The notes beneath the pieces were generated by a model that did not search any database, was not told the DNA's origin, and saw only the letters and a program-made list of their open reading frames with translations. Both the position numbers and the translations under genes were made by a program. Positions 6,918 through 20,957 of a stretch of 35,867 nucleotides of DNA are shown here, piece by piece. Source of the stretch: Promethearchaeota archaeon Loki_b31 (GTDB lineage Archaea > Asgardarchaeota > Lokiarchaeia > Sigyniarchaeales > SOKP01). Where the stretch lies: the NCBI GenBank assembly GCA_005222975.1, contig NJBI01000035.1, positions 1 through 35,867 on the forward strand. The letters run 5' to 3'. Position 1 is the stretch's first letter. Every line of letters starts with the position of its first letter.

Positions 6918-8858
6918 ATGGAAAAATCTGAAAATCATCGGATTGGATACTATGCATGCCAGTGAGGTATAAATATACGTAGTAAAGTTGATTGCGACGA
7001 GTTAGTACAGTTTGCCAAAGGTCTAGATGGTGTGGTTATTTCAAAAATTCATGCCTTTCTATGAACAGAAAGCGGTCAAAACGAGATAATCAAAGACATA
7101 GAAGAAAAAAACTTAGATTGTATTGTAGCTTCTGCTTGAACGCCTAGGACTCACGAACCAATTTATAGAGGATCGATTGCTAAGACCGCTATGAATCCTT
7201 ACTTTTTTCAAATGGTTAACGTAAGAGAACATTGCTCTTGGTGTACTGAAGATAACGAAGAAGCTTTAGAAAAAGCAAAAATCTTGGTTCATGGCGGAAT
7301 TAATAGAGCAAAATGTTTGGAAGCCGTCCCTGTTAGAACAGTTCCCGTTGAAAAAGCAACCTTAGTTGTTGGCGGAGGAATAGCTGGGATGAACGCTGCG
7401 TTAGACCTAGCCAATGGAGGGATAAAAGTTTATTTAGTCGAAAAAAATACCACGATCGGGGGAAGGATGTCTCAGTTAGATAGAACCTTCCCAACCGACG
7501 ATTGTTCGATTTGAATTTGCGGACCCAAAATGCTTGAAGTCAATCGCCACGAAAATATCGAGATTCTAAGCTATAGCGAAGTGAAAAACGTTGAAGGATA
7601 TGTAGGAAATTATAAAATCACCGTTGAGAAGAAGTCGCGTTATATAAATAACGATTGTAATGGTTGTGGTGCCTGTTCTGAAGTGTGTCCAGTATATACT
7701 TCGAACTATTTTGACGAAAATTTAGGAGTGAGAAAAGCAATAGATATAGCGTTTGGACAAGCAGTACCTTTTTTGTACGACATTAATAGAGATGTATGCG
7801 TTGAATGTTTTAGTTGTGTGGAAGCTTGTGAGTTAGATGCTATTGACTTCAGTCAAGTGCCTGAAGAAGTTATGTTTAATGTAGGAACGATAATAATCGC
7901 AACTGGATGGGATATTTACGAACCATATGGAGAATATGGATACGGAAAGTTCGAAAATGTGATTCAACAAGCCCAACTTGAAAGAATCTTAGCACCGAAT
8001 GGTCCATTAGAAGGACACGTTCATAGAATTTCGGACGCCAAAAAACCTAAGGAGATTGTGTTTATTCAATGCGTAGGAAGTCGTGACACGGAAAGACCTT
8101 ATTGTAGTGGCGTTTGTTGTATGTTATCGTTGAAAAACGGAAAATTGCTTAAAGAAGAATTTCCAGACGCGAACATTACCATCTGCTACATAGATATAAG
8201 AACGAACGAAAAAGGTTTCGAAGAATATTATCAACGAGCTAAAGATTCTGATATCAGGATGATCCGGGGAAAGGTTGGCGAAATTACTGAAGATCCAGAA
8301 ACTAAAAATGTAAATATTCGGGTTTATTCGTCTTTAACTGACGAGATCATTAAAATTAGCGCGGATCTAGTCGTTCTATCTACAGCTGCATTGCCATCAA
8401 AAGGTACGGACCAAATAGCTCAAGTATTAAACCTAGATGTCGATAGAAACGGGTTTTTAACAGAAGCTCACTTTGGATTAATGCCACAAGAGACTAAGGC
8501 TAAAGGAATTTTCATAGCTGGGTTTGCTCAAGGACCAAAAAACATTGCGTATTCGGTTTCTCAAGCAAGAGCAGCTGCAAGTAAAGTAGCTGAATTAACC
8601 GCCCCTGGAAAAATAGATATTGAATTAATAACTGCTGAGGTTTATAAAGAGCTGTGTATTTCGTGTAAAAGGTGCGAAAAAGCATGCCCTAAAAACGCTA
8701 TAAAAGTTGTTCGTGACGAAGGTGCTGTTGTAGACGAGATAAATTGCGATGGGTGCGGGATTTGCGTTACTTGTTGTCCCACTCAAGCAATAGACATTAG
8801 ATATTATCGAGATTATCAACTATTTACTGAAATTGATGGAATTTTAGAAGGAGGTTAA
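6918..8858 (+). CDS. hdrA: Heterodisulfide reductase subunit A, selenoprotein, 646 aa with 4 predicted Sec (U16, U49, U74, U199)
   Basis: One frame from ATG 6918 (GAGGTG upstream) to TAA 8856-8858, interrupted only by TGA at 6963, 7062, 7137 and 7512. Contexts are RIGYYACQUGINI, HAFLUTESGQ, VASAUTPRTHE and TFPTDDCSIUICGPKM; the paralog at 13329 has Cys at each. Also GGGIAG FAD motif, CVGSRD and YCSGVCC, and two ferredoxin domains. Joins track ORFs 7191-7514 and 7530-8858. Confidence 0.92.
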
Positions 8859-8863
8859 ACGGA

Positions 8864-9322
8864 ATGGAGAATAATTATAAAATTGTAATATTTGCTTGTC
8901 TAAAGTGAGGATATAGCGCTGCAGATTTAGCAGGAGTCTCTCGTATGAAATATACAGCATCAGTAAAGATTATTAAAGTAAGATGCACTGGAAGAGTCGA
9001 TGTAAAGCACATCTTATATAGCATAAAAGCTGGAGCTGACGGAGTTATGGTTGTTGGATGACGACCAAATGAATGTCAGTTTAAAGAAGGAAATTTTAAC
9101 GCCCAAAGACATGTTGATTTTGCTAATAGAATTTTGGAAAAGCGAGGATTCGGTAGTCGAAGAGTTAATATGTATTGGCTAAGTAGTGCTGAGGCAGAAA
9201 AGTTTGTTAAAAGCGTCGAGGATGCGTACGAAAAGGTAAAAAGATCTGGACCCAATCCGTTAAAAAGCATGGATATTAAAAAAGTAAAACAAAAAATATT
9301 AACTACTCCCATAGAAGAATGA
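8864..9322 (+). CDS. mvhD: MvhD/VhuD [2Fe-2S] subunit, selenoprotein, 152 aa with 2 predicted Sec (U15, U66)
   Basis: ATG 8864 after GGAGGT. Reads MENNYKIVIFACLKUGYSAADLAGVSR...RCTGRVD...GADGVMVVGURPNECQFKEGN, with TGA at 8906 and 9059 opposite Cys in the paralog at 20526 (CCNWCSY, TGCHIGDC). Joins track ORF 9134-9322. Confidence 0.92.
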
Positions 9323-9341
9323 ATCTTATAAAAAAAATTTA

Positions 9342-9383
9342 GTTATAAGATGACTTACCTTGCGAAGGAGGGAGTCTAATAAT
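9342..9383 (+). promoter_or_regulatory. Putative SECIS element (eukaryote-like AUGA/GA core) downstream of mvhD
   Basis: GTTATAAGATGACTTACCTTGCGAAGGAGGGAGTCTAATAAT folds by hand into a lower stem, U9351.G9374, tandem G9352.A9373 and A9353.G9372, an upper stem CTT(A)CCT/AGGAGG and an apical loop TGCGA. It is a GC-rich spot in an AT-rich spacer right after two TGA-containing genes. Confidence 0.72.
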
Positions 9384-9433
9384 AGTTTAATTTGTTAATA
9401 TGTGCATTTAATAAATAGGTAAATGAAGGAAAT

Positions 9434-10942
9434 ATGGTTCAAGTTGTAAATAGCAAGTTATTTAAGGGAATTTCTCCCAAAGACTTAATGGAGGCTACTT
9501 ATCAAGCTTCGGGAAACTTTCAAGTTAGAGCTTTTTTTGAAGCAAAAGAAGAGATATTGAAAGTAAATAAATTTTCTGAAAACGAATTTTACGAAATCCT
9601 AGATGCTATGATAGAAGCAGAAACTGAGCGTAAATTAGTACTGAAAGAATTAATGGGGAATAAGCCGTTATTTTTAGAGGAAATCGTAAAGATCGTCAAA
9701 GATTTCCCTCCTGAAAATGTTATTGGAGATGTTATATATTTAAAAGAACAGGGGTATGTTCAGGAACATGTGGAAATCAAGACTAAAACGGTTATAAAAA
9801 AAATCAAGGGAGAAGAAAAAGAAGTTGAAGTGAAAGAATTCTTTTATAGGTACCAAGTAAGGGATTTACCAGACGATTTTATTGAGTACTATTTTGAACC
9901 TGTTTCTATAGTTTTTAACGCGGGAGTCTGTTGTCAATGTGGATGGTGCTCTGCGATCTGTCCTGTAAACGCCATTGTAGTAACGGCAGACACTCTTGAA
10001 ATTGACGAAGATATTTGCATGAAATGTGGGTTGTGTTTTTCGGTCTGTCCTCGTTCCTTTTCGATAGATCAAGCTAACGAAAGCATTAAAAAGTTAGACA
10101 AATCTTTAAAATGGTCTGACAAAACTGGAGCTTATATTAACGCTTACTCAGCATCAACGACCAAAGATGATATTAAGAAAGTTCGTCAAGATGGTGGTAT
10201 TGTAACTTCTATCTTGGAATATCTTTTAGATAATAATCTTGTTGATGCAATTGTAGCTGTGCAGCATTCTGAGGAATTATGGAGACCAGAACCTGTAATA
10301 GTAGAAAGTGTGGAAGATTTATATAAAACGGGTGGAACTAAATATGCAAATTCGCCTTCTTTAACCATCATAGATCAATGTAAGAAATACGAGAAGATAG
10401 CTTTCGTAGGAGTGCCTTGCATGATGAAAGCTATAGAAAAGGGGACTATGTTTCCAAGTGGGTTACCATTTTTTAAAAATATTAAATACAAGATCGGTCT
10501 TTTTTGCATGGAATCATTCCCTTACGACGGAATAATTAATTTAGCTAAAGAACAGTTTAATAAGGACATAAACGAACTAACCAAAATGAATATTGGAGGC
10601 GGTAAATTTATAATAAATTTGAAATCTGGAGAGCAAATGGATGTACCACTTAAAGAAGTGCAAAAATACGCGCGTGATAATTGTCATTTTTGTGAAGATC
10701 TAACATCAGATTACGCCGACATTTCTGTAGGATCGATTGGGTCGCAAGATGGATGGTCTTCTGTAATAACGAGATCGAAAGATGCAGATAAACTATATAA
10801 CGATATAGTTAAAGCAGGATTAATCGAATCTAAGAGTTTAAAGGATGTAAAGCCCGGGCAATTTCTAGTTGAAAAAATTGGTGTAAGTAAACGAAAAAAA
10901 TGTAAATCAATAAATTTAAAAGAGAATCAAGATGGACACTAA
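9434..10942 (+). CDS. FrhB/FdhB-family F420-binding subunit with ferredoxin domain and extra ~150 aa N-terminal (winged-helix-like) domain
   Basis: CCQCGWCSAICP, CMKCGLCFSVCP, QDGGIVT, VGVPC, IGLFCMESF and CHFCEDLTSDYADISVGSIG. Confidence 0.85.
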   Translation: MVQVVNSKLFKGISPKDLMEATYQASGNFQVRAFFEAKEEILKVNKFSENEFYEILDAMIEAETERKLVLKELMGNKPLFLEEIVKIVKDFPPENVIGDVIYLKEQGYVQEHVEIKTKTVIKKIKGEEKEVEVKEFFYRYQVRDLPDDFIEYYFEPVSIVFNAGVCCQCGWCSAICPVNAIVVTADTLEIDEDICMKCGLCFSVCPRSFSIDQANESIKKLDKSLKWSDKTGAYINAYSASTTKDDIKKVRQDGGIVTSILEYLLDNNLVDAIVAVQHSEELWRPEPVIVESVEDLYKTGGTKYANSPSLTIIDQCKKYEKIAFVGVPCMMKAIEKGTMFPSGLPFFKNIKYKIGLFCMESFPYDGIINLAKEQFNKDINELTKMNIGGGKFIINLKSGEQMDVPLKEVQKYARDNCHFCEDLTSDYADISVGSIGSQDGWSSVITRSKDADKLYNDIVKAGLIESKSLKDVKPGQFLVEKIGVSKRKKCKSINLKENQDGH

Positions 10943-20525: not shown

Positions 20526-20957
20526 ATGTCAAAATCAACAAAAAAGAAAATGAATTGGAATCCAGAGCTAATTACCTTCTGTTGCAATTGGTGCTCTTAT
20601 GCGGGAGCTGATTTGGCAGGGGTTTCTAGATTTCAATATCCACCCAACATGAGAATTGTTAGAGTTATGTGCTCTGGAAGAGTCGAACCTTCTTTTGTTT
20701 TAAAAGCTTTAAAGGATGGAGCAGATGGGGTCTTAATAACTGGGTGTCACATTGGAGATTGCCATTACATAAGCGGTAACGAGTTTACGAAAGAAAGGTT
20801 TGAAAGATTACATAAAATAATAATTAAGCAATTGGGTATAAACGAAAAACGCGTTAGGTTGGAGTGGGTGTCTGCTTCTGAAGGTAAGCTTTTTGCTGAA
20901 TTAATTACAGATTTTACGAACGATATAAAACGATTAGGGCCGTTAAAAGTTTTTTAA
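20526..20957 (+). CDS. mvhD: MvhD [2Fe-2S] subunit, Cys-type
   Basis: FCCNWCSYAGADLAG, VMCSGRV, GADGVLITGCHIGDCHY and WVSASEG. Confidence 0.93.
   Translation: MSKSTKKKMNWNPELITFCCNWCSYAGADLAGVSRFQYPPNMRIVRVMCSGRVEPSFVLKALKDGADGVLITGCHIGDCHYISGNEFTKERFERLHKIIIKQLGINEKRVRLEWVSASEGKLFAELITDFTNDIKRLGPLKVF

Follow-up and report, generated by a model that had tools for sequence, protein, structure and literature searches.

A canonical lokiSECIS core within a probable three-way junction behind the hdrA-vhuD gene pair of Promethearchaeota archaeon Loki_b31

The hdrA-vhuD locus and its SECIS core

The window analyzed here is a 35,867-nt stretch of DNA from Promethearchaeota archaeon Loki_b31 (assembly GCA_005222975.1; positions 1 to 35,867 of contig NJBI01000035.1, or C90). 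Its G+C content is 31.5%, and the 3.52-Mb assembly from which it comes consists of 99 contigs and is 92% complete. Two neighboring genes on the forward strand contain in-frame TGA codons, and the locus carries a canonical, already published Lokiarchaeota-type SECIS at the end of the second gene. By position in the window, the genes and the parts of the core are:

6918-8858, + strand: hdrA, with four in-frame TGA codons (6963, 7062, 7137, 7512) and a TAA stop
8864-9322, + strand: vhuD/mvhD, with two in-frame TGA codons (8906, 9059) and, by translation, a terminal TGA at 9320-9322
9323-9351, + strand: P2, the SECIS stem-loop, 9 bp (9323-9331/9343-9351) with an 11-nt loop (9332-9342), as in the MFE fold
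9352-9354, + strand: non-bulged core strand, G9352 and A9353, then C9354 (position -1n)

With TGA translated as U, hdrA stays open over 646 codons and encodes an HdrA-like product with FAD/NAD and 4Fe-4S domains (Pfam). The gene has no 3' UTR of its own, and the gap between it and vhuD measures 5 nt. The vhuD product is assigned to FlpD (Pfam PF02662, 148.5 bits), and the stop TGA of the gene (9320-9322) sits within the AUGA of the SECIS. Downstream, a frhB-like gene starts at 9434, so that any 3' signal must fall in or near 9323-9433. DNA nearly identical to window positions 8600-9700 is present in metagenomes of marine sediment, cold seeps and the subsurface, from at least 14 studies, and four metatranscriptome libraries contain it too.

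Folding of the whole intergenic region gives two adjoining hairpins, the first of which is 9323-9351. The lokiSECIS format comprises AUGA, a 9-bp stem, an 11-nt loop in which the first five bases are A-rich and the last G is preceded by A, and then GA (Mariotti et al., 2016, PMC4989117); these elements have been classed as the Asgard eSECIS-like type I (Huang, Xiao & Zhang, 2024, PMC11227280). The core at 9319-9353 matches every published feature, including the position directly behind the coding sequence. AUGA (9319-9322) lies directly 5' of stem P2, the nine pairs of P2 are all Watson-Crick, and the A-rich apical loop, AAAAAAUUUAG, starts with AAAAA and ends in AG. Three A columns of the loop and the terminal AG are invariant in the alignment A1. 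A further 100 elements were collected from relatives. Among 109 elements, the dinucleotide that follows the stem is GA in 97 and AA in 12. The published VhuU lokiSECIS likewise uses AA for GA (PMC4989117), as does the vhuU element of the present genome.

Alignment A1 was used to build R1, a covariance model of the core (35 nt), which was run alongside a pattern scan. The window core scores 46.3 bits with R1. Both searches point to exactly nine sites in the 3.5-Mb genome, with R1 scores of 38.8-46.3 bits, the next best match reaching 18.9 bits; the contig of the window has a single hit. All nine sites sit behind genes with in-frame UGA: four hdrA-vhuD pairs (contigs C90, C17, C23 and C61), vhuU, a Prx-like gene whose redox box is UU, and three small ORFs. 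The genome encodes 11 FlpD/MvhD genes, four with two TGA codons and seven in Cys form, and the element lies downstream of all four of the former and none of the latter. It is this association with TGA-containing genes that suggests a role of the element in Sec insertion at UGA. One of the Cys-type MvhD genes is found in the window (20571-20939, + strand), adjoining Cys-type hdrA genes, and others occur at six further places in the genome. Cys paralogues of MvhD that have no SECIS are thus present beside TGA-containing MvhD in the same genome, and therefore the Sec and Cys isoforms coexist.

A SECIS as such is ordinary for a Lokiarchaeia-like genome. R1 hits were obtained in 131 of 131 sampled genomes of the family to which the window belongs, and in none of 19 sampled genomes from three sister families of the same order. 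The Rfam SECIS models (SECIS_1/RF00031 and relatives) give no hit above the gathering score over the window, and none at E <= 10 in 9250-9450; earlier SECIS tools are reported in the published lokiSECIS papers to miss such elements. Compared with eukaryotic SECIS, the window element has a shorter upper stem. It shares its 3' UTR location with the euryarchaeal SECIS of Methanococcales and Methanopyrus, and the methanogen VhuD element also has AUGA together with GAC or AAC, matching the conserved C that follows GA here (PMC4989117). However, the euryarchaeal elements are built on a GAA_A bulge and a run of G/C pairs, both of which are absent from the window element.

A closing helix and a side hairpin around the core

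The core is enclosed by further structure. Past the 3' GA, each of the nine genomic elements has first a short hairpin (P3) and then a strand that complements sequence a few bases 5' of AUGA and would form with it a closing helix (P1). In the window the parts are:

9305-9375, + strand: the whole SECIS three-way junction (71 nt), with P1, the k-turn core, P2 and P3
9305-9310, + strand: 5' strand of P1, ACUCCC, in the last vhuD codons, pairing with 9370-9375
9317-9322, + strand: bulged k-turn strand, G9317 (position -1b), loop A9318-A9319-U9320, G9321 and A9322
9358-9368, + strand: side hairpin P3, CCUU/AAGG (9358-9361/9365-9368) with the loop GCG
9370-9375, + strand: 3' strand of P1, GGGAGU

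The pair G9317:C9354 and a 3-nt loop (9318-9320) belong to the k-turn core. Infernal placed the G of the window at 9314; position 9317 is preferred because it gives the usual 3-nt loop. Judging from the motif, G9321.A9353 and A9322.G9352 would form tandem sheared pairs. The layout recurs among the relatives: P1, a linker of 1-6 nt, G, N-A-U, G-A and P2 come first, and G-A-C, a linker of 0-4 nt, P3 (3-8 bp), another linker of 0-4 nt and the 3' strand of P1 follow. The G two bases 5' of AUGA is found in 103 of 109 elements and the C after GA in 102 of 109. In 91 of 107 elements P3 has GC in its loop or in the pair that closes it, and this loop is often GNRA-like. The strands of P1 differ among paralogue classes while their complementarity is kept, amounting to 75 distinct strand pairs; examples are ACUCCC/GGGAGU (window), CCGAA/UUCGG, GCUAGAA/UUCUAGC, UGUAUAUGG/CCAUAUAUG and AACACCCAA/UUGGGUGUU.

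For a quantitative comparison, 95 elements (alignment A5) were aligned to R2, a model of the three-way junction made from six gap-free seeds, on which window positions 9302-9383 score 86 bits. A second seed of 22 sequences aligned with MAFFT was out of register and was dropped. The pair counts on A5 lean toward the structure to which Infernal fitted the alignment, and the elements are kin and not independent; read with this in mind, the six pairs of P1 are paired in 94.3% of cells and the four of P3 in 90.1%, all with compensatory changes in both helices, and the G:C pair is paired in 100% (GC 90, AU 2, CG 2, GU 1). P2 is paired in 95-96% of cells in A1 and A5 (96.4% on the 95 elements of A5), with compensatory changes at eight of nine pairs in A1 and at all nine in A5. 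The first P2 pair departs from the standard ones in 31 of 95 elements, in keeping with the 3b.3n position that it would take in a k-turn. The second pair of the C helix is AU in 39 elements and UA in 14 and is paired in 73%. All 20 pairs of A5 change on both sides, and the covariation score is 0.666 compared with at most 0.136 for slid controls. At the level of aligned sequences, P1, P2, P3 and the G:C pair are therefore backed by covariation.

Alignment-free comparisons gave a similar separation. When 5' flanks were swapped between elements and the parse was re-optimised, a P1 score of at least 15 was reached by 50% of native elements vs. 9% of flank-swapped ones, and none of the 16 flanks taken from other cluster representatives reached the P1 score of the window. 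Against shuffles, 17 cluster representatives gave p = 2e-4 for P1 and p = 3e-8 for P3. Single-linkage clustering at 60% had merged 73 elements into one cluster, and the test on 17 representatives is therefore conservative. RNAalifold, run on 107 elements and their flanks as aligned by plain MAFFT, recovered P2 alone; this is because the linkers vary in length and leave P1 and P3 out of register, so that a structure-aware alignment is needed. The three-way architecture is accordingly a well-supported refinement of the lokiSECIS model.

How far does it depart from what has been described? P1, the G:C pair and P3 do not feature in the models described in the texts of the published papers compared here. 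Huang et al. (2024, PMC11227280) model the core, upper stem and loop only and cite the k-junction paper for the GA_AA pairing alone, and a 2026 review repeats the same core-only SECIS models. Within the open literature covered, no account was found that joins SECIS with a three-way or k-junction architecture, though an earlier depiction may exist. The k-junction was defined by Wang, Daldrop, Huang & Lilley (2014, PMC4005666), and the window element resembles it in topology, the side hairpin P3 being inserted in the non-bulged strand: this third helix follows GA-C within 0-4 nt, and it covaries. The sequence G N A U G A ... G A C is compatible with the trans sugar-Hoogsteen G.A pairs and the kink of a k-junction, and with a third helix coaxial with the C helix. 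There are also differences. The core is separated from the third helix by a C helix of 1-3 bp and linkers of 0-4 nt, and the element is thus not identical to the TPP k-junction, since the C helix and the short linkers set P3 apart from the loop. Eukaryotic SECIS, for their part, have a helix I and an internal loop where the lower part of the window element is a three-way junction.

Is the core hairpin (9319-9353) nevertheless the whole of the SECIS? P1 and P3 could be conserved for other roles, such as protection or definition of the mRNA 3' end or as a folding aid for the A+U-rich k-turn, and not be read by the Sec machinery. Published models do recover Asgard SECIS from the core alone, and the sequences of P1 and P3 vary freely except for the GC in the P3 loop. 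Moreover, even under a permissive geometry a few elements (e.g., the one on contig C34 and its orthologue) are without any P1, while in the Prx-like class P1 is merely short or A+U-rich. On the other hand, P1 and P3 go together with the core at nine of nine genomic loci, where the preceding genes are unrelated, and in the 95 aligned elements, with fixed short spacing, and retention of GC in most P3 loops suggests a contact rather than mere stability. A core acting alone is on balance unlikely. The junction as a whole is the preferred reading, and it can be extended, though here we remain tentative and would put the case a little below even: lokiSECIS may be a k-junction-like three-way junction in which both P1 and P3 are required and are read by an archaeal SECIS-binding factor, the helix I and internal loop of eukaryotes being the remnant after loss of P3. 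The conserved closing helix and side hairpin refine the model of an element that connects Sec decoding in archaea with that in eukaryotes.

Other readings of the same RNA

A first-pass annotation of this DNA had proposed a compact, eukaryote-like SECIS 23 bases further downstream, with AUGA opposite GA, tandem sheared G.A pairs between two helices and a short upper stem:

9342-9383, + strand: compact fold, not supported as a structure

The letters are as cited, with AUGA at 9350-9353 and GA at 9372-9373, and so is the competing register GACUU/GAGUC (9352-9356/9372-9376) that the annotation had mentioned. It had also rightly recognized an AUGA...GA element of the eukaryote-like or lokiarchaeal kind; a PatScan-like pattern for the methanogen-type GAA/A SECIS (Huang et al., 2024) has no hit in 9290-9433. 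The place and the anatomy of the element were wrong. The proposed AUGA combines A9350-U9351 of the stem with the GA that truly follows it, the proposed 3' GA lies within the closing helix P1, and the element is a full-size lokiSECIS (9319-9353), not a short-stem variant. The upper stem can be drawn as an interrupted 6-bp helix (9354-9356/9369-9371 and 9358-9360/9366-9368) with the loop UGCGA, of which the real part is the side hairpin P3.

Could the compact fold nonetheless act as the SECIS, or as a second conformer by which the canonical one is switched off? It does place tandem G.A pairs between two helices, and it is the MFE structure of the isolated 49-nt piece (-12.1 kcal/mol, z = -2.29; 6 of 200 shuffles fold equally well). 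It is not distinguished from chance, however: the genome contains 409 GA/GA motifs of this kind flanked by helices, about 1.6 times the shuffled count. The lower helices of the compact fold must displace the 9-bp stem P2, and in a 92-nt context their mean pairing probability is 0.01 vs. 0.94 for P2; the three-way junction, at -15.1 kcal/mol, is 3 kcal/mol more stable. On the 95 elements of A5 these lower helices are paired in 53-54% of cells, at the background of 38-54% set by slid controls, and only four pairs of the fold are conserved, those in common with P3. Its loop is a symmetric 2x2 GA/GA loop that has no 3-nt bulge, and the motif is therefore not a kink-turn. Lack of a similar element at other selenoprotein genes was among the outcomes that the annotation had named as refuting its proposal, and this is the outcome found: the other eight selenoprotein loci of the genome carry the canonical element and are unable to form the compact fold. 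A functional compact fold, already largely refuted by comparison, is extremely improbable. The compact eukaryote-like variant does not exist, and its description is a mis-registration of the lokiSECIS.

A further reading would be that the RNA is unrelated to selenocysteine and is a C/D-box-like k-turn RNA, i.e., an L7Ae-binding sRNA or RNP site. The best weak Rfam hits are indeed to C/D snoRNAs, and snoR21 matches exactly 9305-9375, with a terminal stem that corresponds to P1. Its 22.8 bits, however, fall far short of the gathering score, which is 45; neither a RUGAUGA C box nor a C'/D' set is present, and all sites of the element follow genes that contain in-frame UGA. The weak snoRNA hits reflect the same combination of k-turn and terminal stem, and there is scarcely any likelihood that this is a C/D-box RNA.

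Decoding of the UGA codons and further selenoprotein candidates

The explanation that best fits the locus, and which we regard as very probable, is a canonical lokiSECIS core set in the 71-nt three-way junction (9305-9375), most likely serving the six UGA codons of hdrA and vhuD. According to Mariotti et al. (2016, PMC4989117), a single lokiSECIS is present per hdrA-vhuD pair with none between the genes, it attends to up to six UGA over about 2 kb, and its AUGA doubles as the stop codon. In the mechanism that we propose, one hdrA-vhuD transcript would carry the SECIS. In RNA libraries of related strains, both the hdrA/vhuD junction and vhuD-SECIS-frhB are spanned by contigs; these contigs, which do not give strand or ends, are weak evidence, compatible with cotranscription and not proof of it. 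The junction may then present a k-turn and an A-rich loop to the archaeal Sec machinery, comprising SelB and a putative k-turn binder; SBP2 has been reported absent from archaea. Sec-tRNA(Sec) would most likely be directed to the six UGA located 260, 413, 1807, 2182, 2257 and 2356 nt upstream. The UGA within AUGA would be spared and terminate vhuD, since it belongs to the structure itself and lies too near for recoding. Both the kink and the recoding are predicted here. Readthrough of this stop (9320-9322) would meet a UAA two codons on (9329-9331).

With respect to the Sec machinery, the genome encodes SepSecS (382.8 bits). Searches of the 92%-complete assembly with Aragorn and Rfam found no tRNA-Sec above the Rfam cut-off. 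Candidates were rejected: the top matches to RF01852 are tRNA-Arg, tRNA-Gly and tRNA-Leu, and an SeC call made by Aragorn contains a 90-nt intron.

The locus offers a clean example of one SECIS most likely serving six UGA in two cistrons, up to 2.4 kb away. P1, the P3 loop and the G:C pair provide targets for finding the archaeal SECIS-binding protein and for improving SECIS search tools, and better tools would also reveal small selenoproteins that homology searches miss.

Three small ORFs with in-frame UGA accompany lokiSECIS sites in this genome. On contig C28 (15537-15746, + strand), an ORF without annotation encodes a 69-aa zinc-ribbon protein (CPFC...CQNC). It contains four in-frame TGA, at residues 25, 47, 49 and 59, in part within the motif HGUTUVICTYGDVPU, and ends 23 nt ahead of the lokiSECIS at C28:15767-15801. 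The sole database homologue of the protein is 68% identical and shows W at all four TGA positions, and the TGA codons are therefore conserved. We take it as a candidate for a new micro-selenoprotein with several Sec residues; the seven families listed for Asgard archaea do not include it. The ORF on contig C34 (17931-18122, - strand) encodes a protein of 63 aa that has a single transmembrane helix and bears the motif GG(I/G)-U-x-C; the SECIS of this ORF, at C34:17887-17921, has P3 and no clear P1. Most of the 26 homologues of the protein are called as 47 aa, ending exactly at the TGA, and two longer calls give W at the TGA followed by conserved sequence; the protein is a candidate membrane-anchored micro-selenoprotein. 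Finally, the lokiSECIS on contig C87 (31031-31065, + strand, 43.2 bits) may belong to a 37-codon zinc-ribbon-like ORF that ends in TGA 43 nt upstream or to an overlapping frame with an internal TGA.
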